A stretch of 15,581 bases of DNA from Candidatus Hermodarchaeota archaeon (GTDB lineage: Archaea > Asgardarchaeota > Hermodarchaeia > Hermodarchaeales > Hermodarchaeaceae): NCBI GenBank assembly GCA_016839365.1, contig JAEOUH010000090.1, positions 1 through 15,581 of the forward strand, given 5' to 3'. Below the pieces are notes generated by a model. That model was not told the origin of the DNA. It worked only from the letters and a program-made list of their open reading frames with translations, and ran no database searches. Position 1 is the first letter of the stretch. Each line of letters opens with the position of its first letter. This document shows, piece after piece, positions 1 through 15,581 of the stretch. The translations under genes were made by a program, and so were the position numbers.

Positions 1-1209
1 CACACAACAGCTGCGTTAATCGGAGCGGTTTTGGTATCGATAGCCCTAATCATCAATGGAGTTACTGGCCAAGAAATCTTGGCGATGGTGCGGCTAGAAC
101 CGATACTGGTCATCACCGGGATGACCGTTGTGGCGGAGGTTATGCGGGGAGCCGGTGTCTTTCAATTTTTTGCCGTCTACTTCATCCGGTTAACGCGAGG
201 AGATCCCAAAAAGCTCTTTGTCATATTTTGTGGAATGAGCGCAGCGCTATCCTCGGTCCTAATGAATACTGTGGTAATTCTAATCATGGGGTATTTAGTG
301 ATTCTAACCTGTTATGCCCTTGAAATTAAGCCACATGGACTCTTGCTAGGAGTATTGTTAGCGGTTGGCGTCGGTGGTGCATTCTCACTTATTGGAACAG
401 CATCGAACGTTATTATTGCTGATTTTGCGGGGTTTGGATTTGATTATTACCTTATACGTTTTGGAGTTTTTGCCATTATCGCGTTCACCGTGTCATTGGG
501 CGCCGTTTTTTTGGTAGTTCGGCGCCAGTTAACTATCGAAGATTCGAAGGCGATTGATCGAATACGGGAGTTAGATCCGTGGATGATGGTTCCCAATCGG
601 CGATTGTTTTGGGTGTATGCGGGACTCTTTGCCTTACTCATCGTAGCTTTTGCCCTGTTTCGTCAACCCTTTGTAGTTGCCATTGGGGGGATGATGGTAT
701 TCATGCTTGTCAGTCATGCGGATCCCCGGGCAAGCCTTCGTGATGTAGAGTGGACCATTATCTTTTTCATTGGTGGGCTCTTCGTTGTGGCAGGAGCCCT
801 CCAGCTTGTTGGAATTCTTAGCATACTTTCAAACGCCATTCTTATGGCAAGTGGCGGATTACTGATTCCAGCTTCATTGATGCTGTTATGGAGCACCTGG
901 ATTGGAACATTCTTCATTGGAAATTCACCTATCGCCACAGTCTTTGCACCCCTAGCGGGCGAAATAGCTACCATCATGGGTTGGCCGATTGGAGTACGTG
1001 ATCCACTATTTTGGGGCGTGGGATTTGGCGCCGCCCTTGGTGGGATAACAAGCCCCTTTGGTGCTGTACCCTTGCTTGTGTTATCAATGGTGAGTTTCAA
1101 AGATTCGAAGCTGTCTTGGCGCCGGTTTCTCATAATAGGGACACTTGTGAACATTCTGCAAATTGGGCTATGTTCGCTTTTTATCATGCTTTTCGCCCTT
1201 CCCATCTGA
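1..1209 (+). CDS. ArsB/NhaD (ion transporter superfamily, P-protein/CitMHS-like) permease, 5' end outside window
   Basis: Frame is open from base 1 (HTTAALIGAVLVSIAL...), so the TTG at 31 is not the true start. About 11 hydrophobic segments. Family-like motifs GMTVVAEVMRGAGVF, GGAFSLIGTASNVII, VEWTIIFFIGGLFVV, LFWGVGFGAALGG. Stop TGA at 1207-1209. Confidence 0.8.
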   Translation, partial: HTTAALIGAVLVSIALIINGVTGQEILAMVRLEPILVITGMTVVAEVMRGAGVFQFFAVYFIRLTRGDPKKLFVIFCGMSAALSSVLMNTVVILIMGYLVILTCYALEIKPHGLLLGVLLAVGVGGAFSLIGTASNVIIADFAGFGFDYYLIRFGVFAIIAFTVSLGAVFLVVRRQLTIEDSKAIDRIRELDPWMMVPNRRLFWVYAGLFALLIVAFALFRQPFVVAIGGMMVFMLVSHADPRASLRDVEWTIIFFIGGLFVVAGALQLVGILSILSNAILMASGGLLIPASLMLLWSTWIGTFFIGNSPIATVFAPLAGEIATIMGWPIGVRDPLFWGVGFGAALGGITSPFGAVPLLVLSMVSFKDSKLSWRRFLIIGTLVNILQIGLCSLFIMLFALPI

Positions 1210-1256
1210 GAACGAGGAAGGGACTTCATATGTGGTGGTTGAAAGTAGATGCGATG

Positions 1257-1472
1257 CTACTCGGATTCCTCTAAATAGCCCCATGAGATTCCCTGAAAGA
1301 TGCGCTCTAAAATATAGTAAAGAATGGTTTTCAGAAAGTTAGCGATAAGGGCGATTAGCAATGATGTCTCAATGCTCCCTGTAAATAGCCACGCGACCAA
1401 ATAGGTGACCGTCAAGGCGACTGCCCGCCAAATCAATGCTTTCACAATTGAACGAGTTCGTGTCTCTCTCAA
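1257..1472 (-). CDS. DUF2061-like small membrane protein (71 aa)
   Basis: ETRTRSIVKALIWR...WLFTGS...KTILYYILERIF..ISWG follows the DUF2061 pattern (RSxxKAxSWR...TG...KxxLYYxHERxW..xWG). TTG start preceded by GAGGTGGAGG on the minus strand. Confidence 0.8.
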   Translation of the reverse strand: MRETRTRSIVKALIWRAVALTVTYLVAWLFTGSIETSLLIALIANFLKTILYYILERIFQGISWGYLEESE

Positions 1473-1815
1473 TAACCTCCACCTCGCTGAGGATTATGCG
1501 GAAGTATTGTTAGACAATAATTTGTATAAATATCTGTCTATTACAAAATTGTTCACAGGAAAAGCTGTCCTTTTAGCAGTTTAAATAGCGCTTGTCATGA
1601 TTGCCAATAATTTCAAGATAATATTGTTTGTCAAACTTTGGAAATGATATTTTTCAAAGTGTTTTTGTTTTTTCGTTCACCTCTAGTAAATGCAAGGGTG
1701 TGAAGAGTCAGCCTGTGTAACTATAGAGGTCCTAAAAAATCGCACATCCTTACAACAAAACTTTGGAGATTGAATGAGAACGTGGTAACAAAGGATCCTT
1801 ATGGGGTGGTAGAAT

Positions 1816-2046
1816 TTGAAGTATTGGACGTGTCCTGAATGTGGAGTATCTAATTTTATTCATTTACGTTTGTGCCAGCATTGTCGTTATATCCGGCGAG
1901 AGGCCGATGTGACACTAACAACAATTGATTTTTGGAAATGCCAATGGTGTGGGGCGCTTAACGTTATGCCTCGTTACATCTGCCGTAATTGCTATCAAAC
2001 GCGCTATCGCGTCCCCCTTCCTACTTCTGAGAGTAAAAAAAAGTAA
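1816..2046 (+). CDS. Small protein with two RanBP2/NZF-type zinc fingers (76 aa)
   Basis: WTCPECGVSNFIHLRLCQHC and WKCQWCGALNVMPRYICRNC both fit W-x-C-x2-C-x3-N-x6-C-x2-C exactly. GGGGTGG SD-like motif just upstream of the TTG. Confidence 0.8.
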   Translation: MKYWTCPECGVSNFIHLRLCQHCRYIRREADVTLTTIDFWKCQWCGALNVMPRYICRNCYQTRYRVPLPTSESKKK

Positions 2047-2189
2047 ATTCTCATCAGGAATAACAAAACTAGTTGCAGCCATTGATAGCCTTTCTTAAAC
2101 AGGGCAAGCTTTTTTGTCTTAGCTACGTTACTTGACAATTAGAGTTATCATGTGTATTTCTCCACCGAAATCATGAGAAGGACCACAAG

Positions 2190-4718
2190 ATGAATGTATA
2201 TGCGGCTTTAGCCCACCCACTCCGCGAACAAATTCTTCGGATATTAGACGCTGAACGACTAATCACCTATAATGATTTGATGAAAAGATTAGGGCTTAAG
2301 AAAACAGGCCTATTCAATTATCATCTCAAAAAACTCGAGGGGTTCATTGAGAAGCGGAATGGCTTCTATCAGCTTTCAGCCGCAGGAGCAAATGCGATCC
2401 GGCTTATGACCGCTAAGGAACAATTGATGGCCGGAGAATCAATCGATCTTAGCGAAGCTGATTCACGTGGTGCAATTTTCCGTATTGGGGTGATTGTCTG
2501 TTCTTGTGGTGAGGAAATTCATCAAGCCATTAATGTCGGGGAGCTTATGGAGAAAATTAATGATCTGCCCTACGTTGAACGCACGATGGTGTTTCAGCAT
2601 TTATGTTTGTTAGAAAACGTTGAGAAGCTTAAAGCATGGTGTGATCGGTATTTTTTAAATAATCTTGTAATCGCGGCCTGTTCTCCTCGTCTTCACAGCC
2701 AAATATTTTCCACTATTCGAATGCAATTGGATATACCGATTGAATTTGCCAATATACGTGAACATTGTGCTTGGGTTCACAGTAATAAGCCCGAACAAGC
2801 CACAGAAAAAGCGTTACTTCTAATACGAGCCAGCGTTGAAATGCTCCGGCACCGGGTTTCAATTCCTAAGCGTACTTTACCAATTCGGAAAAGTGTCGCC
2901 ATCATTGGCGGTGGTCTAGCCGGATTAGAGGCGGCTAAGGTGTTGACCCAATCCAACTATTCCATTATTCTATTAGAGAAAGAGTCGTGCCTAGGTGGAA
3001 TCGCGCGGCGATGGGAAAGCATCTATGGGGCCATTGATTGCGGTCCATGTATGATTGCTGAGGATGTATCCTCAGTTATGCTTTCTGGGAATATACGAAT
3101 TCTTACTAATACAGAACTCTCCGATATTTCAGGAACAATCGGCAATTATGAGATTACGGCTCTACAACAGCCCCGATATATCGATCTATCAAAATGCATC
3201 ATGTGCGGCTCTTGTGTCGATGTATGTCCTGAGTCTCGTCCAGATGAATTTGAGCACCACATTACCCAACGTAAACTCATCCATCTGCCGTGCCCTGCCG
3301 CATATCCCAATAGACCCGTCATTGAACAGGAGGATATTGATTTTTGCCGGACATGCCGAAAATGCGAAAAAGCATGTCCCTCTAAAGCGATTAATCTTGA
3401 TCAAGAACCTGTAATTAAGAAGTTCACTGTTGGCGCTATAATTCTTGCAACAGGGGCAGAAGTATGCGATCCTAAAACCTTACCACCCCAAGGTGCAATT
3501 CAATATAACCCCGCTAAGGATATTATCACTTCATCTGAATTTGAACGAATGTTAGCGCCTGATGGGCCAACGGGAGGCAAAATAATCTGCCCAACAACAG
3601 GCCAACCTGCCCAGTCCATAATTGTTCTCCAATGTCAGAACCGAAATAGGACATGTTCACACTATTGTTGTAATGTCGGGCTCAAATACCTAGAGATTGT
3701 AGAAAAAAAGGCCCCTAATACTTCTATCAATGTTCTTTACCAGATATCCCTAATTCCACCTGATCGAACCACCTTCATCCCTGAATATTCTCATATTCAC
3801 TTTTGTGAAAGTATAAAGATCATTCATCGGGGACATAAACGCTTAATCCAAACTGATACAAATTCATTCCCAGCAGATCTTATTGTTCTCAATATGGGTA
3901 TGACGCCAGGAGACCAACAACTAACCCTTCGTAGCATGACTAATTTTTCCTTGGATAGACTTGGGTACATTGATCCAAAGAGCTTATCTTCAGGTATTTG
4001 GGCTTGCGGGTCTATAACTGGTCCTAAAGCTTATGCCAAATTAGTAACAGATTCGCGAGATACTGCATTAGAAGTTCTTCTTCTCTTAGGAAAAGATAGC
4101 CTCCCTGCAGGGGACATGCCAATTCAAATTAACAAAGAAAAATGTGGATTATGTAATCTCTGTGTTGAGTCATGTCCCTTTAACGCTCTCACCATCATAG
4201 CTGACACACTTCGTATCGATACCCTGAAATGTGAAGGCTGTGGAGCCTGTATCGCTATATGCCCGACCGGTGCCCTATCTTCCCCTCCAATTCAGGAGGA
4301 GATTCAAGCGGCAATGGTTGCCCTCTCAATGAGCACAACCTCCCCCCGAATACTTGTGTTTTCCTGCGACTCATGTGGATACCCTGCAGTAGATAATGCG
4401 GGCATTCGCCGACTGGACTATGATCCAGGTGCAATGGTCATCAGATTGCCTTGCGCGGGTTCAATCGATGCAAATTATGTAATAACAGCGTTAAATCTCG
4501 GATTTGATGGCGTTGTGGTTGTTGGCTGTCATGAAACAGCTTGCCGGTTCTTTGAAGGTATCAAGAAGGCTCAGACACGAATTGGTGTTCTCGCTGCTTT
4601 TTATGGAGACGAATTACAAAATCGCGTACGTGTATTGAATGTGTCAGCCGTTGAGGGCCACGAGTTCGCGAACCAGGTCAATCAATTTTCCACTGAACTA
4701 AAGGAGCTAATAAGCTAA
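2190..4718 (+). CDS. hdrA: Fusion protein: N-terminal ArsR-like winged helix-turn-helix + heterodisulfide reductase subunit A-like FAD/FeS protein + C-terminal MvhD [2Fe-2S] domain (842 aa)
   Basis: aa 1-73 are wHTH-like (YAALAHPLREQILRIL...TGLFNYHLKKLEGFIEK...YQLSAAG). HdrA motifs: RIGVIVCSCG, VIAACSPRLH, ANIREHCAWVH, IIGGGLAGL, inserted ferredoxin CIMCGSCVDVCP / CRTCRKCEKACP, VGAIILATG, EFERMLAPDGPTGG, CSHYCC, GIWACG..TGPK, and a C-terminal 2x[4Fe-4S] domain. MvhD from about nt 4344: ILVFSCDSCGY, IRLPCAGSID, GFDGVVVVGCHETAC, NVSAVEG. Confidence 0.92.
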   Translation: MNVYAALAHPLREQILRILDAERLITYNDLMKRLGLKKTGLFNYHLKKLEGFIEKRNGFYQLSAAGANAIRLMTAKEQLMAGESIDLSEADSRGAIFRIGVIVCSCGEEIHQAINVGELMEKINDLPYVERTMVFQHLCLLENVEKLKAWCDRYFLNNLVIAACSPRLHSQIFSTIRMQLDIPIEFANIREHCAWVHSNKPEQATEKALLLIRASVEMLRHRVSIPKRTLPIRKSVAIIGGGLAGLEAAKVLTQSNYSIILLEKESCLGGIARRWESIYGAIDCGPCMIAEDVSSVMLSGNIRILTNTELSDISGTIGNYEITALQQPRYIDLSKCIMCGSCVDVCPESRPDEFEHHITQRKLIHLPCPAAYPNRPVIEQEDIDFCRTCRKCEKACPSKAINLDQEPVIKKFTVGAIILATGAEVCDPKTLPPQGAIQYNPAKDIITSSEFERMLAPDGPTGGKIICPTTGQPAQSIIVLQCQNRNRTCSHYCCNVGLKYLEIVEKKAPNTSINVLYQISLIPPDRTTFIPEYSHIHFCESIKIIHRGHKRLIQTDTNSFPADLIVLNMGMTPGDQQLTLRSMTNFSLDRLGYIDPKSLSSGIWACGSITGPKAYAKLVTDSRDTALEVLLLLGKDSLPAGDMPIQINKEKCGLCNLCVESCPFNALTIIADTLRIDTLKCEGCGACIAICPTGALSSPPIQEEIQAAMVALSMSTTSPRILVFSCDSCGYPAVDNAGIRRLDYDPGAMVIRLPCAGSIDANYVITALNLGFDGVVVVGCHETACRFFEGIKKAQTRIGVLAAFYGDELQNRVRVLNVSAVEGHEFANQVNQFSTELKELIS

Positions 4719-5452
4719 TGACCAAGATTGGGTTTCTTCAGCTAAACTCTTGTAGCGGGTGTATGTTTGCAGTACTTGGTAGTGCCCTATTTCCTGAACT
4801 CCTAAAATCAGTTGATATTCGTTTGTTTCGATTAATCTCTGATATTCAAGTTGATACTGATTTAGATATCGCCTTTGTAGAAGGCGGAGTCACTCGAGAT
4901 GAAGACGCAGAGCTTCTTCGAAGACTATGGACCGCCGGAACCAAAATCATCGCTTTGGGAAGCTGTGCCGTTCTTGGTGGAATAATGAGCCAATCCCCCA
5001 ACATGCATATCGATCCCATCAGTAAATTCGTTGATTTACACTTGTCATTACCTGGCTGTCCGCCACCACGAAAGCTACTTGGAAATCTTTTGATGAGTGC
5101 AATTGATGGTTCTGAAATCACCCTCCCTGAGAAAAACGTGTGTGGAGAGTGCCCGTTTGCACAAGATCAAGCATTTGATGTTGAGATAACGTCCTTACAT
5201 AACATACACCCACCCCAAAGCTGTTTCTTACGCGAGGGAATACTCTGCTTAGGCCCAATAACCCGTGCCGGGTGTGAAGCCCTTTGTATTAACGGAGCCA
5301 CGCCCTGTGATGGCTGTATGGGTACCATAGACCGGAATCTGCCCTCCACTATTGCTAACTTCTTTTCTCTCATAAAAGTGAGCGACGCCATTCGAAAGTA
5401 TGCAGCTCTCGCTTTTAGATACCAAAAACCGGAGCTGAAGTTCAAACAATGA
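4718..5452 (+). CDS. mvhG: Group 3 (3c-like) [NiFe]-hydrogenase small subunit, MvhG-like
   Basis: CSGC, FVEGGV, ALGSCAVLGGI, LPGCPP, VCGECP, CLGPITRAGCEALC...PCDGCMG. The start overlaps the upstream stop (TAATG). Confidence 0.88.
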   Translation: MTKIGFLQLNSCSGCMFAVLGSALFPELLKSVDIRLFRLISDIQVDTDLDIAFVEGGVTRDEDAELLRRLWTAGTKIIALGSCAVLGGIMSQSPNMHIDPISKFVDLHLSLPGCPPPRKLLGNLLMSAIDGSEITLPEKNVCGECPFAQDQAFDVEITSLHNIHPPQSCFLREGILCLGPITRAGCEALCINGATPCDGCMGTIDRNLPSTIANFFSLIKVSDAIRKYAALAFRYQKPELKFKQ

Positions 5453-6783
5453 AAATTCGGCTATCTTTACCAATGACACGTATTGAAGGCGAAAGCAAGC
5501 TCATTGTGACGCGAGACAAGGATCGCATAACAAATGTTGTATATAATATGCCAACTGCACGAGACTTTTTGAATGTTCTAATTGGACAACACATTAATGA
5601 CTTACCAAAAATTGTTCCCCGGATCTGTGGAATTTGTCCAGTTGCCCATAGAATTGGAGCAATAAAAGCAATAGAATCGACAACTGATGTATCAATCCCC
5701 CCAATTGCCGAGTTAATCCGCGAACTAGCGCTCCTGGGGGAAATCATCCGATCGCATACATATAGTGTGTTTTTTTCTACTTTGGCGGATTTGATGTATC
5801 TTACAAACCAAATTTCTCGACAAGACATCTTTGGCATTGATCGCATGCAACCACGGGTTCTACCAATTGCTACAAAATTATACGATTGTGCAGAAGCGTT
5901 AATCACAGCAACAGCGGGTAATACTAATTTGGCCTTTAACCTGATTCCAGGTGGAGTCGTACAAAACATCAGTAGTACTCAACAGCAAGATCTTATCCAA
6001 CAACTTTCGTTAACACTCTCGGGAGTAAAATGGGCTAAAGAATATTACAATTTGCTCCTAAATGAAATTGAAGAGGAAATCCAAAACTATGCACTTCCTC
6101 GTCCGCTTTATATCAGCTCCTTTGAAACAAAGGCCAATCGATTTTCTGGTATTAATCAAGTCCAGTTCATTTCAGATGATGGAATACAAGAAACCATTTC
6201 CGGTGATGATTTTTCTGAATATCTAGTGGAGCAGGACTTGGTAGAGGCCCCCACAAAGGTTGCGTATATCAAATCAAACGAGGAATCCAAGAATCTTCTA
6301 GCGGGACCATATGCCCGACTAGCTGTACTCCAGTCTAAGCCAAGAAAAAGTAAGAAATCGTCCATTGGAGAGCCTAACCTGTTTCGATCCGGGCTTCTTC
6401 GAATTGATGAAATGGAATTCGCTCTCACGAATGCAATCAATCTGTTGGAAACAGAATGGTCGAAAGATGAAGACGTATCAATTGGGGTGAATCCGGGAAC
6501 CAGAGTTGGGGCTAGCGCCGTTGAAGCTCCACGGGGAATCCTCCTTTATCGAGTAAGAACAAATGGGGGCAACAGAATCGAAGATATCGATATTCGAGTG
6601 CCAACAGAGCTTAATGCCCGTGCGATAGCTGTGATTGTAAAAAACGTTATGAATGCTTGCATAAATCTTGGTTGGCCAAATGAAAAAATCCTTGAACGGG
6701 CAATGATGGCCGTTCGATGTTTTGATCCCTGTGTTTCGTGTGCAGCTCATACAGATATTAGATTCCGAGAAGCGAGATGCTAG
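5449..6783 (+). CDS. mvhA: Group 3 (3c-like) [NiFe]-hydrogenase large subunit, MvhA-like
   Basis: TRIEG, L1 motif PRICGICPVAH, VEAPRG, VPT, and L2 motif RCFDPCVSCAAH followed by a 10-aa tail typical of a maturation-cleaved extension. ATGA overlap with the mvhG stop. Confidence 0.9.
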   Translation: MKIRLSLPMTRIEGESKLIVTRDKDRITNVVYNMPTARDFLNVLIGQHINDLPKIVPRICGICPVAHRIGAIKAIESTTDVSIPPIAELIRELALLGEIIRSHTYSVFFSTLADLMYLTNQISRQDIFGIDRMQPRVLPIATKLYDCAEALITATAGNTNLAFNLIPGGVVQNISSTQQQDLIQQLSLTLSGVKWAKEYYNLLLNEIEEEIQNYALPRPLYISSFETKANRFSGINQVQFISDDGIQETISGDDFSEYLVEQDLVEAPTKVAYIKSNEESKNLLAGPYARLAVLQSKPRKSKKSSIGEPNLFRSGLLRIDEMEFALTNAINLLETEWSKDEDVSIGVNPGTRVGASAVEAPRGILLYRVRTNGGNRIEDIDIRVPTELNARAIAVIVKNVMNACINLGWPNEKILERAMMAVRCFDPCVSCAAHTDIRFREARC

Positions 6784-6959
6784 AGAACGAAAATCATGAT
6801 TTGAACTTAGGAGATACCGCCACGATCTAGTTCACAAGATGTGCATTGGACAACGAGCTTGACGATAAAAATTGTCATGTTTTCATTCAAAATAAATTTT
6901 CATCGCCTTTTTCTCAGATTGGAAGAAGTCTTAACTGCCTAACACTGGTAGGTGATCGT

Positions 6960-8654
6960 TTGAAAACATTAGAGCTTGCCCCCTTAAGTGGGAAAAAATT
7001 GCGGGTCTTCTTAATTAGAAAGGCCTACGACGAACCGTGGCTCATTCATTCGCCTTCTTCTGAATCTGAATCGAAGATTTCTGCAATAAAACGCCCTTCT
7101 ATGGCTTATTGTGATATGATCAAACAGATTGCAGAATCAGAGTCACCAGATTTTGCAACAGATGAATTGGGTCTACGGAGCCTGAAAGAATTCCGTGAAG
7201 ACAGCCCTGTTGCGGATGTATTTTCAAAATTAAAGATTCCTTTTTATGCGGTTGAGATGGACGAAGTCGCCCACTCATACCTCTCACGGAGTATCAAACT
7301 GAAACTGGAAAAGCGCAATGAGGTCTTAGACGGTTTAAGAATTCTATCAGATGAAAAAATTACTCCAAGTGTGCAAGACAAAATCGATCGGCTTGTCGCA
7401 TACGGACAGTATTTGCACGATGAACTTGAAGAGGAAATTAGACAAGTACAATTTGGAATTCGTGAAAGCTGGATTGCTATGGGAATTTTAAACCAAGCTG
7501 AGCTTCTTAAAAAGAAGCGATTAACCGCCTTTCACTTGAGCAGCCCTAGACATTTCCAAGGTATGATGGAACTTTTACAATCCTTAGAGGTGGATGTAGT
7601 CCCAATAAGCTTCAAACGAATTCTTGCGGAAGTGCCTAAAGAGGAAATGAAAGGCATGACGGAACTCACAGGAGTCTCTTCAGTTTCTGTTGTGCCAGTG
7701 ATTAAGCGGCCAAAAACAAAACTCAGTGATATTCTTTTTTTCCTAGAAGCGGATGAACACGCTAGCCCGTTTGATATCTGTGTAGCGTATGACGCAGGAT
7801 TTGATGTTGTAGTTCCATATTCTGGGGTGTCACTTAATCAAATTCAAGACTTAGTCCAAGATGCGATCTTTTCAAGAGGAACCAAAGGAGTAAAGCATCT
7901 CTGCTTCTTTGTTGGAGGCCGGCAGGTTTCAGTAGCCCGTCAAATGGCAGACAGAATTCAGAAGGCAATGGTGAAACCTTTCGAAACTGCAGTAATTATC
8001 GATCCACATGGTGCATTTTCCACTGCGGCGGCTATGGTTGCCAAAGCTGAGGACGCGCTGCGCAAACTGAACCAAGGTTCACTCAAAAGTAACATTGCCT
8101 TAATTCTTGCAGGTACAGGACCAGTTGGAGAGAGTGTGGCTCACTTACTTTCCAAGAGCGGAGCTCTCACAGTATTAACCTCACGAAATATTGAACGGGC
8201 TAAAGAAGTAGCTAACCGGGCATCAATCGAGGGTAATAAAGTAGAAAGGGTTCAATCAACTTCACCTGAGGACATTCATGAACTTCTAGAGGATGCTAAC
8301 CTTATTTTCGCTGTCGGTGCGCCTGGGATTCAATTAGTATCACTCGAACAGCTGCAATCTGTTTTAGGGACAAAAATCCTCTTGGATGTAAATGCTGTAC
8401 CTCCAAGTGGAATCGAATCTCTAACTCCAATAGATGATCTTCGTGAGTTAATCCCTGAAAACTATGGTATTGGTGCGTTGACTATTGGTGATTTAAAACT
8501 CAAGGTGCAGCGTCAGATGCTCCAAGAAGCACGGAAAAACGCTCAAGGCATCTACGATGATGAAACAGCCTTGGACATTGCTCGAAATATCCTCAAAGAA
8601 CAACGTGAAGCGATTAGTAAACCCAAACTCAAAATTGAGGTTGTTACAGCATAG
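6960..8654 (+). CDS. mtdB: NAD(P)-dependent methylene-tetrahydromethanopterin dehydrogenase (MtdB/MtdA family) with an extra about 220-aa N-terminal TraB/TIKI-like domain
   Basis: From about nt 7731: HASPFDICVAYDAGFD, LVQDAIFSRG, FVGGR, DPHGAFSTAAAMVA, Rossmann LAGTGPVG with LTSR, DVNAVPPSGIE, GIGALTIGDLK. Start moved from 6846 to TTG 6960 because AGGTGAT sits immediately upstream. Confidence 0.82.
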   Translation: MKTLELAPLSGKKLRVFLIRKAYDEPWLIHSPSSESESKISAIKRPSMAYCDMIKQIAESESPDFATDELGLRSLKEFREDSPVADVFSKLKIPFYAVEMDEVAHSYLSRSIKLKLEKRNEVLDGLRILSDEKITPSVQDKIDRLVAYGQYLHDELEEEIRQVQFGIRESWIAMGILNQAELLKKKRLTAFHLSSPRHFQGMMELLQSLEVDVVPISFKRILAEVPKEEMKGMTELTGVSSVSVVPVIKRPKTKLSDILFFLEADEHASPFDICVAYDAGFDVVVPYSGVSLNQIQDLVQDAIFSRGTKGVKHLCFFVGGRQVSVARQMADRIQKAMVKPFETAVIIDPHGAFSTAAAMVAKAEDALRKLNQGSLKSNIALILAGTGPVGESVAHLLSKSGALTVLTSRNIERAKEVANRASIEGNKVERVQSTSPEDIHELLEDANLIFAVGAPGIQLVSLEQLQSVLGTKILLDVNAVPPSGIESLTPIDDLRELIPENYGIGALTIGDLKLKVQRQMLQEARKNAQGIYDDETALDIARNILKEQREAISKPKLKIEVVTA

Positions 8655-8755
8655 AGAGACGGGCTTCAAAAACCATCTTGTGTCAATAATGGCAATTATG
8701 TCTTCGAAATCCAACAAGAATGGTAAATAAAACCCCAGAAAACTGCGTGCTCAGA

Positions 8756-8772
8756 ATAAAAGCAGCTTTTAT
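8756..8772. promoter_or_regulatory. Perfect 8-1-8 palindrome ATAAAAGC-A-GCTTTTAT overlapping a TATA-like TTTTAT; candidate operator/promoter of the ADC-family gene
   Basis: Exact inverted repeat read from the sequence, about 40 nt upstream of TTG 8810. Confidence 0.45.
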
Positions 8773-8809
8773 GTTATGCCGCTTCGTTATTACCAAGGAG
8801 GTGAACTGT

Positions 8810-9574
8810 TTGAAACTCGTACGTTCTGAGGAAGAATTTGCTCAGTTGAGGGAGTATTTTGCTAGGGGCTATTTGCTCGATGATGTCACCATGGTAATGG
8901 CCTTATTCCGTACGGATCCAGAGGTCATTAAACGCATCCTACCACCCCCCCTAGAACCTGCACCTAATCCAACTGCCAATGTATATGTTGCGGAGTTTCA
9001 CAAAACCAATTTTGGACCCCCCTACAACGAAGCCGCCCTCTTCCTATCCGCACAATATAAAGGAGAACTCGGTAACTATTGTATGTCGATGCCCGTAACT
9101 GAAGATAACGCTATGTGGGGCGGGCGAGAGAGATATGGATTTCCGAAAAAAATCGCTGAAATTATCCAAGTCAAACGGAAAGGAAATGTCGCCACCGGCA
9201 CCTGCATTCGGCGCGGCCATACCATCTTCAAGTTAACCGTTAAGCTAGCTGGTCCTTTCACCGAGGAAATTCCTTCAACACCGAATTACCTTGTTAAAGC
9301 CTTTCCCAGTGCAACTGGTGAAGGATTTGATTCACCACCGCTTCTTATCCAACAACATAATGAAATCAATTGGGGCGAACGGGAAATCGGTCAAGGCACA
9401 CTTGAAATAGGCGAATCCAACTTTGATCCTTTACATGAAATTCCCGTCCTAGAGGTTCTGATGGCAGGCTATACGACAAACATGCAGATTTGGATGAAAC
9501 CCGGTAAAATCCTCACCCAACTTGACAAGAAACAATATCTCCCATACAGCGCAATTAAGGAAGATTGGCTTTAG
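8810..9574 (+). CDS. Acetoacetate decarboxylase (ADC-like) family protein
   Basis: FRTDPEVIKRILPPPLEP, GPPYNEAAL, GGRERYGFPKK (Schiff-base Lys motif), DPLHEIPV. Start moved to TTG 8810, which follows a strong SD AAGGAGGTGA (8795-8804). Confidence 0.85.
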   Translation: MKLVRSEEEFAQLREYFARGYLLDDVTMVMALFRTDPEVIKRILPPPLEPAPNPTANVYVAEFHKTNFGPPYNEAALFLSAQYKGELGNYCMSMPVTEDNAMWGGRERYGFPKKIAEIIQVKRKGNVATGTCIRRGHTIFKLTVKLAGPFTEEIPSTPNYLVKAFPSATGEGFDSPPLLIQQHNEINWGEREIGQGTLEIGESNFDPLHEIPVLEVLMAGYTTNMQIWMKPGKILTQLDKKQYLPYSAIKEDWL

Positions 9575-9675
9575 CCGAGTCACTTTAAAACTAATAAAAA
9601 ATACCATAAATTGGTAAAGCTTAGAAAGCCAAGTTGAGGAAATGGCAGGCAAAACCAGAGGAATGGTGTTCGGTA

Positions 9676-10587
9676 ATGGAAATTGATAAAGTTCGAACAA
9701 TTTTAATCATTGGCGCTGGGACTATGGGAACACAGATTGGTTTTCAGTGCGCTAGCCACGACTACAGCGTGACTATCTACGATATTAATACAAATCAACT
9801 GAACGCGGCAAAAGCAAAAATTTACGCACTTGCCAAACAATTGGTAACCATTAATTACGTAACGCAAGAAGTGGCAGATGCTGCTCTAGGCCGTATCTCT
9901 TATAGCAGTAACCCCAAAGATGCTGCAGCAGAAGTAGATTTACTCAGCGAATCTGTGACAGAAGACCCTGAAGTAAAAATGGAGGTCTTTAGTCAATTCG
10001 GAAAACTCTGCCCTACTCATACTATTTTCACAACAAACACATCAGGCCTTATACCCTCTATGTTTGCTGATGCTACCAGGAGATCACATCAATTCGCAGC
10101 TCTTCATTTCAATTCCCCAATCTGGTACACTAACATAGTTGAAATTATGCCCCACCCTAAAACATCCAAGACAACAATACAACTACTAGAACTTTTTACC
10201 AAACGAATTGGACTCACCCCTTTCACCCTTAGGAAAGAGAACCCAGGCTATATCATCAACGCTTTACTTCCCCCACTACTCGCAGCAGCAGTCAAGCTAA
10301 AAATGAACGATGTGGCATCCATCGAGGATATTGACCGTGTCTGGATGAATATTACTAAAATGCCTATCGGACCATTTGGCATTCTGGATCATGTCGGATT
10401 AGATGTGGCATTTCATTCAACCAATCTGGTAACAAAAGCTACTGATGATCCCGGGGTTGTCGCAATGCTCAACTTCTACAAAGAATTTATCGATAAAGGT
10501 TGGTTGGGAGAAAAAAGTGGCAGAGGATTTTACACATACCCCAACCCTAAATTCCGACAACCAGGATTCCTGACCGGCGAATCATAG
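9676..10587 (+). CDS. 3-hydroxyacyl-CoA (3-hydroxybutyryl-CoA) dehydrogenase family protein
   Basis: IIGAGTMG, ESVTEDPEVK, FTTNTS, ALHF..P..VEIM, ENPGYIIN, IGPFGILDHVGLD, GWLGEKSGRGFY. ATG 9676 gives the usual N-terminus. Confidence 0.9.
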   Translation: MEIDKVRTILIIGAGTMGTQIGFQCASHDYSVTIYDINTNQLNAAKAKIYALAKQLVTINYVTQEVADAALGRISYSSNPKDAAAEVDLLSESVTEDPEVKMEVFSQFGKLCPTHTIFTTNTSGLIPSMFADATRRSHQFAALHFNSPIWYTNIVEIMPHPKTSKTTIQLLELFTKRIGLTPFTLRKENPGYIINALLPPLLAAAVKLKMNDVASIEDIDRVWMNITKMPIGPFGILDHVGLDVAFHSTNLVTKATDDPGVVAMLNFYKEFIDKGWLGEKSGRGFYTYPNPKFRQPGFLTGES

Positions 10588-10728
10588 TTGAAAAAATAGC
10601 TCTTTCAACAAAGCAAATTATCAATGAAGACAAATAGGTCTTCGAAAGTAGGAATAAAGGCAAATAACACTCTGGAAAGGCTTCTTCGCAAGAAAAGAGG
10701 CGAGAAGGAAGCGGTGCTACTTCCTTCT
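10587..10728. terminator. Cluster of hairpins between convergent genes, possible terminator or RNA-stability elements
   Basis: GTTGAAA-N9-TTTCAAC (10587-10609), GAAGAC-AAATAG-GTCTTC (10626-10643) and AGAAGGAAG-N8-CTTCCTTCT (10703-10728). Confidence 0.35.
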
Positions 10729-10762
10729 GTGACGTGCCTCCCATCCACAGACATGAGAAGGA

Positions 10763-10846
10763 TTATCGAATTCTTCTTTTCCGAATGAAGTATACACTGA
10801 CAACAATGATTGGGATTCCAATAATTAGTCCCGAAATCAGTGTCAT
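10763..10846 (-). CDS. Putative 27-aa single-pass membrane micropeptide MTLISGLIIGIPIIVVSVYFIRKRRIR, or the C-terminal remnant of a membrane-anchored protein gene
   Basis: Manual translation: about 20 hydrophobic residues plus an RKRRIR tail. It is in frame with the ATPase and the frame is open from the ATPase TAG to TAA 10763-10765. No SD motif is visible. Confidence 0.35.
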   Translation of the reverse strand: MTLISGLIIGIPIIVVSVYFIRKRRIR

Positions 10847-10924
10847 TGCGATTGGCGAACCAGGGGAGAAGGAGGGATTGGTGATGTGTAAGATGAGTGG
10901 GTAGTCCCTACCGAAAAGGCCGGG

Positions 10925-13720
10925 CTAGCCCTTGCGCAGTCTCTTCGCTACGAGCTTCCTTATTTCTTCAAGGACTACAACCAGGGATCCGAACAGGACC
11001 ACTCCTACCCATTCATACCAAGCAAGCGGCACAAGTCTGAAGATTGCTGCTAGCGCGGGGACCACAAAGAGGATTCCGACCAGTATGATGTCGATGAGAT
11101 AGACGACGAGTATGTATCGATTCCGAAGGATTCCCATCTCTCGGATTGACTTGGTGGGAGATCTGCAATTTTGGACGCTGAACCACTGGACCACGATGAG
11201 AGTAACGAACATCATTGTCCTAATCTTGTCCTCTGGCAAGCCAAGATACTGGTAGTAGACGATGATAACTAAGGATGCCATGATGCCACCATAGAAGAGC
11301 GCTCTACTGAGGGTTCCCCAAGAAAGAATTCGATCCTTCAGGGAGCCTGGCCCTTCATCCAAGAGCCCCTCCGCTTTTGGCTCGAGAGAGAGAGCAATGT
11401 CTAGCATACCATCGGTAACGAGATTGACCCAAAGGATTTGAATTGGAAGCAGAAGAACAGGATTCACAAAAATCAGGAGTACTGCAATGATAGTGAGGCT
11501 CTCGGCTAGAGTCGTCGATGTCAGAAAGAGAACAACACGCCGGAGCGCGGTCAGGATGTTTCTGCCCTCTTCAATCCCGTCGACTACTGCTTCAAAGCGC
11601 TCGTCCTGCAGCACGATATCGGAGGCCTCCTTGGCGATGTCAGTTCCTGTGACACCCATGGCTATGCCAACGTTAGCTTGTCTTAGTGCTGGGCTGTCAT
11701 TTACGCCATCGCCTGTCATACTGACGAGCTTGTCGAGGCTCTGCAGTGCTTTCACGACCCTGAGCTTGTGGATTGGGCTCGTTCTGGAGAGGACTGAGGC
11801 ACCATGAGTCAGTGCGTCCTGAAGCTGCTGGTCATCCATAGCATCTATCTCATCACCAGTAAATGTCAGGTCTCCTCTCTCCTCAACAAAGATGCCCACT
11901 TCCTGTCCAATTGCCTTGGCTGTAAAGGCATTGTCACCAGTCACCATGATGACAACAATGCCTGCACTGTTTGCTTTCTCGATGTAGTCACGAACTCCTT
12001 CCCTCGGCGGATCGCTAATTCCACAGAGCCCAACGAATGTCATATCTTGGAGGTCCTCGTTGGCGATCTGGGTCTTATCAGAGGGCACCGTCCTGACCGC
12101 GCATGCTAGCATTCTGAGTCCTTGTGAAGCGAACTCCGTTACAATCTCCTCTGTGTTGGAACGGCTCGCAAGGAACTGCTCTATGACCTCTGGGGCTCCC
12201 TTCACTATGACCAGATTTCCAACTCCTTCTGCACCCAGAAGACTGCTGGGCTGATGAAGCGTAGCCATGAATTTCCTCTCGCTATTGAAGGGAATCTCAG
12301 AAATACGTGGCCAGGCCTCATCGAGCACATACTTGTGAAGACCGACCTTCTCCAGCGCCACCAGTAGAGCTGCCTCGGTAGGTGACCCTCTTATCCTCCA
12401 TGCTCGGTCAGCTCCGGTGCAGATTCTCATTGGGTCGTCTTCTGTGAGGCACTCCGAATAGACTTCTGAGTCGTTACAGAGAGCCATCATTGTCATAAGT
12501 CTTTCAAGGTCGAGGTATTCTTTGAGCAGATCCCCCGCGATTCGTTCTTCTGAAGACGACCGGCTCACATCGAGGTCGGGCGAACGCAGGCATCCATCTG
12601 GTCCACAGCCTGCAAGGAAGACCCCGCCGCTTTCGACATCATATCCTGAGCCACTTACCTCGAACATATGGTTCGGAGTGAATATCCTGCGGGTCATCAT
12701 TTGGTTCTTCGTAAGGGTTCCGGTCTTATCCGAGCAAATGACATTGATTAGGCCTAGTGTTTCTACGACACCTAAGTTTCTCACAATGACATTCTTCTGT
12801 GAGAGCGTGTAGACCCCAACAGAGAGCACTATGGTGACAATGGCGATGAGTCCCTCAGGAATCGCAGAAACAAGTGCAGATAGTGAGAACAAAAAGAGCT
12901 CCACAATGGGTATGTTCCGATAGAGCCCCAAGACCACAGTGAGCACCAAGAAGAGCATTGCCACAGCAAGAAAGAAGAGGCTCAATCGCTTTAATCGAAT
13001 CATAATGGTTGGTTCTTTCTTAGCGACGCCCGCGAGCTCCTTGTTGATTTCGCCCAAGGTGGTATTATCACCAGTAGCCAGCACCAGAATACGGGCGCGT
13101 CCTTCAGTGACGTACGAGCCGGCGAAGACCTTGTTGGACTCCTCATAGTAGCGTGGGTTCTCAACCGCGCAGAACACATCCTTCTTGATTGGTACGCTCT
13201 CTCCAGTGAGGAGACTTTCATCGACATGCAGATTGCTCTCGAATAGCACCCTTCCGTCTGCTGGGACCTTCTCTCCAGCTCTGAGAAGGAGCAGGTCTCC
13301 AGGAACCAGCTCCGCAGAGGGGATCTCGGTCTCCTCTCCATCGCGAATGACGAGGGACCTCTGTTCTATGAGTTTCTTGATGGACTCGATGGTTCTTTCT
13401 GCCTTCCACTCTTGGACGAAGCCTATGGTCGCATTGATCAAGAGAATGATTGCGATGACCACTGCATCTATTGCATGGTCTACTAGAACAGAGACAACGG
13501 CTGCAAAAATGAGAACATACACCAGAGGCGATTTGAACTGACGGAGGAAGAGCAAAATGGGGCTCTGCCTTTCCTTCATTGTGAGTTCGTTACGTCCGTA
13601 TTCTAAGAGCTTCTTTTTCACCTCTTCTGGTTTCAGCCCTTCTGGGTCCATACCGAGGCTCATTAGACATTCCGAATAGTCAAGGAGCTCTTCTGGTGGA
13701 GATTCTTTGCTCATGCCCAT
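10925..13720 (-). CDS. Cation-transporting P-type ATPase, type IIA-like (Ca2+/cation, PacL/SERCA-like)
   Basis: YGRNEL, QEWKAE, LVPGD, VPADGR, VDESLLTGES, SAIPEGL, ICSDKTGTLTKNQM, KGAPE, DPPR, MVTGD, MTGDGVND, QILWVNLVTDG. Start could be GTG 13723, ATG 13720 or ATG 13714. Confidence 0.93.
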   Translation of the reverse strand: MGMSKESPPEELLDYSECLMSLGMDPEGLKPEEVKKKLLEYGRNELTMKERQSPILLFLRQFKSPLVYVLIFAAVVSVLVDHAIDAVVIAIILLINATIGFVQEWKAERTIESIKKLIEQRSLVIRDGEETEIPSAELVPGDLLLLRAGEKVPADGRVLFESNLHVDESLLTGESVPIKKDVFCAVENPRYYEESNKVFAGSYVTEGRARILVLATGDNTTLGEINKELAGVAKKEPTIMIRLKRLSLFFLAVAMLFLVLTVVLGLYRNIPIVELFLFSLSALVSAIPEGLIAIVTIVLSVGVYTLSQKNVIVRNLGVVETLGLINVICSDKTGTLTKNQMMTRRIFTPNHMFEVSGSGYDVESGGVFLAGCGPDGCLRSPDLDVSRSSSEERIAGDLLKEYLDLERLMTMMALCNDSEVYSECLTEDDPMRICTGADRAWRIRGSPTEAALLVALEKVGLHKYVLDEAWPRISEIPFNSERKFMATLHQPSSLLGAEGVGNLVIVKGAPEVIEQFLASRSNTEEIVTEFASQGLRMLACAVRTVPSDKTQIANEDLQDMTFVGLCGISDPPREGVRDYIEKANSAGIVVIMVTGDNAFTAKAIGQEVGIFVEERGDLTFTGDEIDAMDDQQLQDALTHGASVLSRTSPIHKLRVVKALQSLDKLVSMTGDGVNDSPALRQANVGIAMGVTGTDIAKEASDIVLQDERFEAVVDGIEEGRNILTALRRVVLFLTSTTLAESLTIIAVLLIFVNPVLLLPIQILWVNLVTDGMLDIALSLEPKAEGLLDEGPGSLKDRILSWGTLSRALFYGGIMASLVIIVYYQYLGLPEDKIRTMMFVTLIVVQWFSVQNCRSPTKSIREMGILRNRYILVVYLIDIILVGILFVVPALAAIFRLVPLAWYEWVGVVLFGSLVVVLEEIRKLVAKRLRKG

Positions 13721-13749
13721 CACTGGTCAGATGGTCTAGGCTTGAGGTC

Positions 13750-13765
13750 CCTATATATGCTTCAT
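13750..13765 (-). promoter_or_regulatory. Candidate BRE/TATA box of the P-type ATPase
   Basis: Minus strand reads GAAGCATATATAGG about 30 nt upstream of the start codons. Confidence 0.4.
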
Positions 13766-14045
13766 GCTGTGTGATGGTTTGAGAGCTAGTACGCCCTCTC
13801 ATTGGGAAAAGGTTCTTGATCATACGTACGCGGGGTGATAGCTCGCTCGCAGCACTATGAAGTACGGGTTGAGAGGAGAAGCAAACAACAGCCCAAGTTT
13901 GTGATGAGGACAAAATCTTCGTTTTTGCGATTGCTCAGAGAGAAGGTACAATTCAGATGGCTGAAGAAACCAAAAAATGAACACTTTTAAGGTAACATAC
14001 AGATGACTTGAACTCCCTTAGGAATTTCGAAAAAGGGTGTAAATC

Positions 14046-14369
14046 ATGTCTGATACAGCTAAGACATTAGTGCTAATCGGTGGCCTTCTGAACTTAATCG
14101 GAGCGCTCATTTTCATCGGGATATTCATTGTATCGTTCGGGTGGTGGTTTACTGATCCAACATTAGCGATATTAGCCTTCGTTATCGGGGGCATATTCCT
14201 AATTCCCGCTATTCTTGGTCTCCTATTTGGTCTACTACCACTTCGATGGCGCGATGAACCAGGACAGCATCGAGTCGGCCTCATCATTATCGGTGTTTTA
14301 ACTATATTCTCGATTGGTGGAATCCTAATCCTAATCGGTGGTATCATCGCAAAGGAAAAAAGCGCTTAA
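14046..14369 (+). CDS. Small Gly-rich integral membrane protein (3-4 TM, 107 aa), function unknown
   Basis: Hydrophobic Gly-rich helices, SD-like AAAGGGTGT before the ATG, and a T-tract after the stop. Confidence 0.75.
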   Translation: MSDTAKTLVLIGGLLNLIGALIFIGIFIVSFGWWFTDPTLAILAFVIGGIFLIPAILGLLFGLLPLRWRDEPGQHRVGLIIIGVLTIFSIGGILILIGGIIAKEKSA

Positions 14370-14391
14370 AATACATCAATGCTTCGATAAG

Positions 14392-14410
14392 TTCTCCCTT
14401 CTTTTTTTCT
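14392..14410 (+). terminator. Archaeal-type pyrimidine/oligo-T terminator
   Basis: TTCTCCCTTCTTTTTTTCT begins about 22 nt after the stop at 14369. Confidence 0.5.
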
Positions 14411-14610
14411 CAAATAATGAGATCTGAACTTGAGATTGAAACCCAAATCTAGTCAAAAAATGATGGCACATTTCTTGCCAGCGTTTGACTCTTTCACAGA
14501 GATGGTTTGTTAGCTAGCGATTTGTCTTCGAAGTTGAAACCAAGAGCGTAATACATGCTGAACTTCCGCTTGCTCTATTTACTGTGCATTGATTTTCCTA
14601 GTCTTTACTT

Positions 14611-15581
14611 CTATTTCTTACTCTTTCGTTTCCGTGGTTGGGATTTTCCACGGCGCCTCCGGAGGGCAACAATAACCACGATTACGATGACTATGATGAC
14701 GATAACTAACACAAGAAATAACGGATCAATTGGGAACGGGGTCGGAATGAATGGACCTGGCTCCGTAACTCGAAGCAACCAGAAATCACCGCCACCCGCA
14801 TCGAAGCTACTTGTGTCACCAAGAATGGCAAAACCACCGCTACTCACACGGATTATTTCCATCGCTCGATCTTCTCCAGCCCCCCCGAATGTCTGGTTCC
14901 ACAGCAGGGTTCCGTCTAAATCGGTTCGTAATACCCAGACATCATTAGCCCCTGCCCCAAAACTCGCCGTATAGGCTGCAATCGTTATTGCACCTGGACT
15001 CGCTTCTAGTACGGACATCCCATACTCAACTGCAGCCCCCCCATAGGTTTTATTCCAAAGTAGAGTGCCATCGGAAGCAGTGCGCAACAACCAAACATCG
15101 GAGTCGCCTGCGCCAAAACTATAGGTATAACCAGCGATGGCAAAGCCACCGGTACTTAACTCTATTACTGAAAATCCTTGGTCCCATCCGCCACCTCCGT
15201 ACGTTCTACTCCAGAGAAGATTACCATTGGCATCGGTCCGCACTAGCCACACATCTGATGATCCCGCACCATAGCTATTGGTATAGCCCGCGATGGCAAA
15301 GCCACCGGCGCTCACTTCCACCACCGAGTAGCCCTCGTCTAGGCTCCCTCCTCCGTATGTGCGATTCCAGAGATGGTTTCCATCAGCATCAGTTCGGAGT
15401 AACCATACATCCGTTGAACTCGCACCAAAATTATCCGTAGAACCAGTGATGGCAAAGCCACCGGTACTTACCCATACCATGGCGGTTGCGGAGTCACTAA
15501 ACACGCCTCCATAGGTTTTATTCCAAAGTAGAGTGCCATCGGAAGCAGTGCGCAACAACCAAACGTCTAAGGAGCCATTCC
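14611..15581 (-). CDS. Membrane-anchored surface protein with 52-aa repeats (beta-propeller-like), 5' end outside window
   Basis: Repeat consensus DVWLLRTDxxGxLLWNxTYGGxxxDxxxSVxExSxGGFAIAGYTxSFGAG, about 5 copies visible. Pro-rich linker, TM helix LFLVLVIVIIVIVIVVIVAL and RRRRGK tail. The frame stays open to the window edge (...NGSLDVWLLRTASDG). Confidence 0.85.
   Translation of the reverse strand, partial: NGSLDVWLLRTASDGTLLWNKTYGGVFSDSATAMVWVSTGGFAITGSTDNFGASSTDVWLLRTDADGNHLWNRTYGGGSLDEGYSVVEVSAGGFAIAGYTNSYGAGSSDVWLVRTDANGNLLWSRTYGGGGWDQGFSVIELSTGGFAIAGYTYSFGAGDSDVWLLRTASDGTLLWNKTYGGAAVEYGMSVLEASPGAITIAAYTASFGAGANDVWVLRTDLDGTLLWNQTFGGAGEDRAMEIIRVSSGGFAILGDTSSFDAGGGDFWLLRVTEPGPFIPTPFPIDPLFLVLVIVIIVIVIVVIVALRRRRGKSQPRKRKSKK
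15041..15564. repeat. Exact 56-bp intragenic direct repeat (15041-15096 and 15509-15564)
   Basis: CCATAGGTTTTATTCCAAAGTAGAGTGCCATCGGAAGCAGTGCGCAACAACCAAAC occurs twice, offset 468 nt = 3 x 156 nt. Confidence 0.9.

Follow-up and report, generated by a model that had tools for sequence, protein, structure and literature searches.

The flavoenzyme PutA of Escherichia coli and Salmonella carries an N-terminal DNA-binding domain and represses its own locus, and reduction of its flavin takes the protein off the DNA. Among hydrogenases, the bacterial group 2b enzymes (HoxBC/HupUV, acting with HoxJ-HoxA) control transcription through a separate kinase and response regulator, and in the archaeon Pyrococcus furiosus hydrogenase genes are controlled by SurR, an ArsR-type winged helix with a CxxC thiol redox switch. 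How archaea sense H2 is an open question, and Asgard archaea are thought to live by hydrogen-linked syntrophy, a way of life central to models of eukaryote origin. Here we analyzed a 15,581-nucleotide (nt) stretch of a Candidatus Hermodarchaeota genome (contig JAEOUH010000090.1, positions 1 to 15,581; hereafter the window), in which one gene joins an ArsR-type winged helix to an HdrA-MvhD protein of hydrogenase-linked electron transfer and is followed by genes for the small and large subunits of a [NiFe] hydrogenase (Table 1). From the sequence comparisons described below, we consider it moderately probable that this protein of 842 amino acids (aa) is a trigger enzyme and acts as repressor of a small regulon of its own, its DNA binding most likely being tuned by the state of the redox module.

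PutA is a bacterial proline dehydrogenase that uses a ribbon-helix-helix domain and a membrane-association switch, whereas here an ArsR-type winged helix is placed on a hydrogenase-linked HdrA. In comparison with group 2b, the hydrogenase subunits have their nearest relatives in group 3, a kinase is absent from the window, and the complex carries the DNA-binding domain as a part of its own. Unlike SurR, which acts as a separate protein and has a CxxC motif, the domain described here has no Cys and is fused to an enzyme. With the MvhAGD-HdrABC complex of methanogens (5ODC) the locus has in common an HdrA core with all Cys motifs, an MvhD and an MvhA that align to their counterparts, but it has in addition an N-terminal winged helix, a fused MvhD and a conserved promoter palindrome, and no HdrBC at the locus. 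An archaeal fusion of an enzyme with a winged helix-turn-helix (wHTH) domain is known in RbkR, a riboflavin kinase whose operators, including one at its own gene, were predicted by comparative genomics and validated, and whose DNA binding is modulated by substrate and product (PMC5397151). The same comparative-genomics logic was used here for another enzyme-wHTH fusion with a predicted operator at its own gene, although RbkR is a small ligand-sensing kinase and not a multi-cofactor redox subunit of a hydrogenase. As expected of a trigger enzyme, an enzyme and a DNA-binding domain are combined in one chain and the predicted operator lies at its own gene.

Table 1. Features of the window around the winged helix-HdrA-MvhD gene (BRE, B recognition element; ORF, open reading frame).
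Feature	Position	Strand	Basis
Fusion ORF, 842 aa, no interruption	2190..4718	+	ORF scan
ArsR-type winged helix, aa 1-80, DUF7347	2190..2429	+	Pfam, conservation, model, Foldseek
Linker, aa 81-97 (17 residues)	2430..2480	+	Low model confidence, least-conserved stretch
HdrA core, aa 98-712: N-terminal cluster domain, FAD/TrxR-like domain, inserted and C-terminal ferredoxin domains	2481..4325	+	Aligned to 5ODC HdrA
Fused MvhD domain, aa 713-842, including stop codon	4326..4718	+	Pfam, solved-structure alignment
mvhG-like small subunit, 244 aa, 12 Cys	4718..5452	+	Sequence, profile matches
mvhA-like [NiFe] large subunit, 444 aa	5449..6783	+	Sequence, profile matches
Main operator-like palindrome, TGACAA-ttagag-TTATCA, 12/12, ends 39 nt 5' of the ATG	2133..2150	.	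Sequence, motif scan
Operator-like palindrome, site 2, TGACGA-N6-TTGTCA, 11/12, 83 nt 5' of the Mtd-like gene	6860..6877	.	Motif scan, alignment
Operator-like palindrome, site 3, AGATAA-N6-TTGTCA, 11/12, upstream of the Zn-ribbon ORF	1616..1633	.	Motif scan
Genus-conserved T-rich block (AGGGCAAGC-T6-GTCTTAG), likely BRE/TATA-like promoter element	2100..2121	+	Six genus loci aligned; role inferred
Mtd-like gene, 564 aa, TTG start at 6960	6960..8654	+	Homolog comparison, Pfam, co-conservation
Small tandem Zn-ribbon (RanBP2-like) ORF	1816..2046	+	Pfam; upstream neighbour kept only within genus

An earlier note on this DNA had read one uninterrupted frame through the wHTH, HdrA-like and MvhD parts, translationally coupled to mvhG and mvhA, and both observations hold: the ORF is intact, its stop overlaps the mvhG-like start in TAATG (4716-4720), and the mvhG-like stop overlaps the mvhA-like start in ATGA (5449-5452). 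An assembly artefact was excluded, as Logan contigs of three independent studies bridge the junction (nt 2380-2500) without indels and the fusion recurs elsewhere. About 60 protein clusters of 840-850 aa, labelled Hermod-, Hod-, Loki-, Thor-, Hel- and Jordarchaeal, share the entire architecture down to 37% identity, and a profile of residues 1-125 recovered the full fusion with an open frame of ~850 aa in ~120 of 400 Asgard genomes. In the window's own genus, which includes 'Ca. Hermodarchaeum yapensis', 6 of 15 genomes have it. The order fusion-mvhG-mvhA was found in 38 of 40 loci from diverse families, so neither the fusion nor its synteny with mvhGA is a singleton. The only families conserved over the 40 loci are the fusion, mvhA, mvhG and an Mtd-like gene; a second conserved transcription factor was not found at these loci, which leaves the winged helix as their sole conserved DNA-binding domain. 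On this comparative evidence, the fusion is real and under selection.

Two copies appear decayed, one (L078, G279:C1) being a 640-aa truncated fusion with mvhG and mvhA not nearby and the other (G155:C223) having an internal TAA. Two fusion contigs (L177 and P0029) are labelled 'Nanopelagicaceae bacterium' and 'Thermoproteota archaeon', which are probably binning or labelling errors and not a wider host range.

The identity of the N-terminal domain as a wHTH, also proposed in the earlier note, is established by sequence and structure comparisons. Residues 3-71 match Pfam DUF7347 (PF24038; E 6e-14, 52.4 bits with a cut-off of 27.6), the same domain gives weaker Pfam matches to HTH_20 and HTH_24, and the NCBIfam ArsR/SmtB model scores 22.6 bits against a cut-off of 55. 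The closest solved sequence, in a profile comparison, is the Archaeoglobus (A. fulgidus) ArsR 1Y0U (E 4.5e-7). An AlphaFold2 model of residues 1-96, built with 45 homologs, has a predicted local distance difference test (pLDDT) of 87 and the element order a1-a2-a3-aR-b-b-a5. Its top Foldseek matches are 3F6O, 1Y0U, CadC, the NolR-DNA complex, BigR and HlyU, and the best structural matches are throughout DNA-binding regulators of the ArsR/SmtB or MarR type. The domain is basic (mean net charge +4.3, isoelectric point (pI) 9.5) in comparison with the near-neutral remainder of the protein (pI 6.9), and is conserved at 0.65 versus 0.60-0.64 for the catalytic domains, with R12, T39, G40, N43, H45 and L46 invariant and K47, K48 and K55 nearly so. 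By its fold, charge and structural neighbours, the winged helix thus looks like a DNA binder. It contains no metal-sensor site: there are zero Cys in aa 1-96, the Cys of a3N is absent and a5 (aa 64-80) does not carry the D/H/H/E motif. Having neither Cys nor an a5 metal site, it has no sensor of its own. Presumably it binds DNA specifically as a two-fold symmetric dimer, as hinted by the 6-N6-6 palindrome at its own promoter; the complex prediction for two copies of aa 1-90 scored 0.39 (mark 0.42), which is neutral on dimerisation.

This imperfect palindrome, TGAYAA-N6-TTRTCA, recurs upstream of the fusion loci. Of 41 upstream regions of 260 nt each, 16 contained a perfect palindrome and 24 a match of at least 11/12, compared with 0.05% and 0.9%, respectively, in dinucleotide shuffles and with 0-3 regions at other spacings of the half-sites. 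Because the pattern had been derived from these 41 loci, we took 55 further loci, found in a separate scan, as a hold-out set and searched 1.5 kb upstream of each. Sites of at least 11/12 were present in 51 and perfect ones in 37, counts that overstate independence since the loci are related. Within 450 nt, 23 of the hold-out loci had a perfect site with the spacing of 6, versus 0-1 at any other spacing.

The palindrome was rejected as a general promoter element, its genome-wide count being at chance. The 2.2 Mb of the window's genome contain two perfect copies, close to what chance would give, the site at 2133-2150 being one of the two; of the 11 intergenic sites of at least 11/12 in this genome, three are found in the 15.6-kb window (1616, 2133 and 6860). 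Four other fusion-bearing genomes contain 3-7 perfect sites each, two of them at the fusion locus in every genome, and the reversed control pattern gave 1-4 sites in the same four genomes. Five complete or near-complete genomes that do not encode the fusion contain scattered single sites only, so that, among the genomes checked, paired sites are confined to those bearing the fusion. Within the window, site 2 is the most conserved element of its spacer in Hermod and Thor loci. Site 3, ~30 nt 3' of a TTTAAATA box (1580-1587), has counterparts between -488 and -581 in three (L059-L061) of the five further loci examined in the genus, with none scored in L062 and L063. Taken by its recurrence and genomic specificity, the palindrome is a conserved, locus-specific predicted operator on the operon's own promoter, and its assignment to the fusion locus is new here.

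In archaeal promoters, the interval between the TATA box and the transcription start is where repressors block the recruitment of RNA polymerase. A canonical TATA box (TTTATATA or TTTAAATA) starts 10-11 nt 5' of the palindrome in 50 of 80 distinct operon-proximal sites, which places the palindrome between the TATA box and the transcription start, in a repressor-type position. In the window's genus, the T-rich block appears to replace the TATA box, and the predicted start would still lie within the palindrome. Where an frhB-like gene leads the operon (e.g. L091), the sites shift with the promoter and stand ~75 nt before that gene. Most sites are paired, 110-170 bp apart. That the distal sites serve a divergent promoter is not supported, as a correctly spaced TATA box on the opposite strand was found for only 1 of 45. 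In Loki-type promoters (e.g. L090 and L117) GATCA elements stand on both sides of the TATA-operator unit (GATCAtaTTTATATA...TTATCAtagaGATCA) and form with it a larger symmetric element.

The body of the fusion retains a complete redox module. Residues 98-840 match the NCBIfam model of HdrA2-type HdrA-MvhD, far under its equivalog cut-off, and Pfam FlpD/MvhD covers residues 721-840. Among solved structures, the 5ODC HdrA (5ODC_A) aligns over its residues 5-634 with residues 98-698 of the fusion (E 2e-90); as the alignment begins at residue 98, the winged helix and linker are a pure N-terminal addition. Relative to 5ODC_A, the cysteines of the N-terminal cluster, the AACSPR and FANIREHC motifs, the GGGxAG motif for flavin adenine dinucleotide (FAD) and both ferredoxin domains are kept, and the cluster beside the flavin (C482/C489/C493/C494) is present with a 6-residue deletion in the alignment. 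The HdrA Cys residues are invariant in 47 homologs. The MvhD domain aligns to 5ODC MvhD (E 1e-17).

Both Ni-Fe motifs of the large subunit, RxCGxCxxxH and DPCxxCxxH, are intact; its best solved match is 5ODC MvhA (E 7.5e-36) and its best matches are of group 3. The Cys content of the small subunit is sufficient for three clusters. The Ni-Fe Cys motifs, the MvhD domain and a small subunit with Cys for three clusters give the module the features of group 3c Mvh hydrogenases, though it is divergent: every NCBIfam score stays far under its equivalog cut-off, and the VhuA model gives the large subunit 118 bits against a cut-off of 800. The large subunit extends 10 aa beyond the last His of DPCxxCxxH, and this tail, together with the group 3 matches and a window that encodes no kinase, sets it apart from group 2b. 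The canonical MvhA paralogs of the same genome are also short-tailed (5-6 aa). In Loki-type loci (L084-L098) the large subunit stops exactly at the last His (tail 0). In two members of the window's genus (L062 and L063), the last His of DPCxxCxxH in the mvhA homolog is changed to Gln or Asn.

The window belongs to an assembly of 2.2 Mb that is 84% complete. Consistent with the earlier observation that hdrB and hdrC are missing here, a Pfam search found no CCG (HdrB-type) gene in the window and none at the 40 related loci; the CCG genes of the genome are found on other contigs only, where they sit beside other HdrA paralogs. Five additional HdrA paralogs are encoded in the genome, none with a winged helix. 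Canonical mvh/hdr sets, whose presence elsewhere the earlier note had left to be checked, do exist: two hdrA-mvhD-mvhG-mvhA sets lie on contigs C27 and C38, with a CCG gene near the former, an HdrA-MvhD gene adjoins a CCG gene on C24, and more CCG genes are found on C45 and C46. The MvhG and MvhA of the window share 25-30% identity with the canonical paralogs of the genome. A complex with HdrBC encoded in trans may form. The genome also encodes a DUF7347 winged helix paralog with a hydrophobic C-terminal region (RDD-like by eye) at C37:48456-49202 (-); its recognition helix, GKLNFHLQKL, resembles that of the fusion, and an 11/12 palindrome is found directly downstream (C37:48377).

The architecture, its conservation, the fold, the palindrome and its promoter position are observed; DNA binding by this winged helix, repression and a redox signal are what we infer. 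The HdrA-MvhD body would assemble with MvhG and MvhA into a soluble, divergent Mvh-type [NiFe] hydrogenase/flavoprotein module. The winged helix, on its flexible linker, would bind TGAYAA-N6-TTRTCA as a symmetric pair, the second head presumably being given by the HdrA dimer. With the site at 2133-2150 overlapping the predicted transcription start of its own operon and that at 6860-6877 preceding the Mtd-like gene, the bound protein would repress a local regulon. Binding would be relieved or strengthened by the state of the redox module, either through H2-dependent reduction of FAD and iron-sulfur (Fe-S) clusters or through the cofactor or assembly state, by analogy with PutA. Since a sensor site is missing from the winged helix whereas the full redox module is kept everywhere, control by redox state, H2 or cofactors is the most economical idea, and H2/redox control of DNA binding is plausible. 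The PutA-style autoregulation raised in the earlier note gains real support from the conserved, locus-specific palindrome, a computationally predicted operator. We regard as tentative, and rather doubtful, the more specific chain in which electrons from H2 would leave the [NiFe] hydrogenase by way of MvhG and MvhD and reach the flavin in the HdrA part of the promoter-bound subunit, so that H2 would set promoter occupancy with no kinase or separate regulator.

Several points weigh against a redox-tuned repressor. In the full-length model (pLDDT 86.5) the linker, residues 81-97, has low confidence, and it is poorly conserved, which speaks against rigid allosteric coupling. With such a linker, the winged helix looks loosely tethered, which weakens the earlier proposal that reduction changes how the two HTH heads are arranged; a sequestration or assembly-dependent switch fits better. 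The motif was derived retrospectively from loci that are related to each other, and its counts are not phylogenetically independent. Two lineages (f21 and f28) and the loci L068/L070 do not have the canonical site, showing GACAA half-sites or a 10/12 variant instead. The model does not account for the second, distal member of each site pair, which lies 110-170 bp farther upstream, and paralogous DUF7347 regulators of the genome, with similar recognition helices, could bind the same motif.

Among the alternatives, the one that survives best keeps the winged helix on the operator and the autoregulation but replaces H2 or redox by another signal, such as simple negative feedback from subunit abundance, the apo or holo (Fe-S/FAD) state, the presence of unassembled protein, or binding of a small molecule. 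What is known of operator and fold fits it equally, and a flexible linker suits DNA binding that differs between the free and the assembled subunit. However, the winged helix itself contains neither a ligand site nor a metal site, and retention of the whole redox module in ~120 genomes suggests that the module supplies the signal; we consider this alternative unlikely.

A dedicated H2 sensor, in which the complex would be a regulatory and not a metabolic hydrogenase and the divergent MvhAG would report H2 to an HdrA-MvhD-winged helix transducer, seems to us quite improbable. It would account for the window encoding neither HdrBC nor another acceptor while canonical mvh-hdr sets exist elsewhere, for the low identity of MvhG and MvhA to the canonical paralogs (merely 25-30%), for the Loki-type large subunit ending at the last His, and for the patchy distribution within the genus. 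Nevertheless, no HdrA cluster, FAD motif or MvhD ligand has been lost, an FrhB-like output subunit has been added to the operon in some lineages, the regulon comprises the locus itself and the Mtd-like enzyme but no metabolic hydrogenases, and the 10-aa tail in the window is no shorter than the tails of the canonical paralogs. Least probable of all is that the winged helix serves in protein docking or as a structural part, with the palindrome bound by another factor such as a stand-alone DUF7347 paralog. A precedent, which also counts against a DNA-binding role, comes from a related HdrA-type complex, class II benzoyl-CoA reductase, whose MvhD-like adaptor BamF contacts BamI through a wHTH motif, and DUF7347-type regulators are widespread among Asgard genomes. 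On the other side, the domain is basic, the structures nearest to it are those of repressors that bind DNA, the loci share no further conserved transcription factor, and among the genomes checked only those with the fusion have paired sites.

The three-gene cluster itself is known from Helarchaeota, where it was read as a possible energy-transferring complex associated with the membrane, with no mention of the DNA-binding domain or operator (Seitz et al. 2019, PMC6478937). We traced that cluster to the contigs NODE_147_length_7209 (L069/L146) and NODE_1033_length_35804 (L068/L116). The membrane-complex reading finds no support in the window, as none of the four proteins of the locus has a segment with a transmembrane-type hydrophobicity score. 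A survey of archaeal fusions lists HdrA-HdrA and HdrA-MvhD fusions only (PMC11237513), and our literature search (DUF7347, HdrA/HTH, ArsR/heterodisulfide reductase, the motif, Asgard H2 sensing) found no published description of the winged-helix fusion or operator. The earlier suggestion that the architecture is undescribed thus stands for the DNA-binding domain and falls for the gene cluster.

If redox control by the 842-aa protein is true, the trigger-enzyme principle would be extended to hydrogenases and flavin-based bifurcating modules; if the H2-sensor reading is true, this would be the first archaeal H2 sensor known and the first DNA-binding hydrogenase complex. The 96-residue domain and the 18-bp operator form a concrete pairing, testable in vitro, from uncultured lineages. 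The small regulon would tie the hydrogenase/HdrA module to an Mtd-like enzyme of a C1 pathway.

The Mtd-like protein consists of an Asgard-specific N-terminal domain (~265 aa, no Pfam match) and an MtdA/B-like methylene-tetrahydromethanopterin dehydrogenase domain, and its TTG start was set from homologs. In an Atlas search, the N-terminal domain found unnamed Asgard clusters only, and a TraB/GumN lead was dropped because its score of 0.76 is below the usable level. The gene neighbours the operon in 26 of 40 loci, where it lies on the downstream side or, in divergent orientation, on the upstream side, has a patchy distribution within the genus that matches that of the fusion, and is broken into 2-3 ORFs in Loki-type loci. 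The Mtd-like protein may be the electron-accepting partner of the complex or represent the accepting pathway.

In some Loki-type genomes, the operon is led by an FrhB/FdhB-like gene (Fer4, FrhB_FdhB_N and FrhB_FdhB_C) at L091:1259-2350 and also in L092, L094 and L098, and there the operator pair stands ahead of this gene. This leading gene hints at an F420-type output.

The Zn-ribbon ORF on the other side of the window's operon is 66-95% identical in L059-L062. Upstream of it (1580-1633) are the TTTAAATA box, a TTGTCA half-site and the 11/12 palindrome of site 3, and it is a possible member of the regulon. Not conserved with the operon in other lineages, genes for an acetoacetate decarboxylase-family protein and a 3-hydroxyacyl-CoA dehydrogenase follow the Mtd-like gene in the window (8720-10587).

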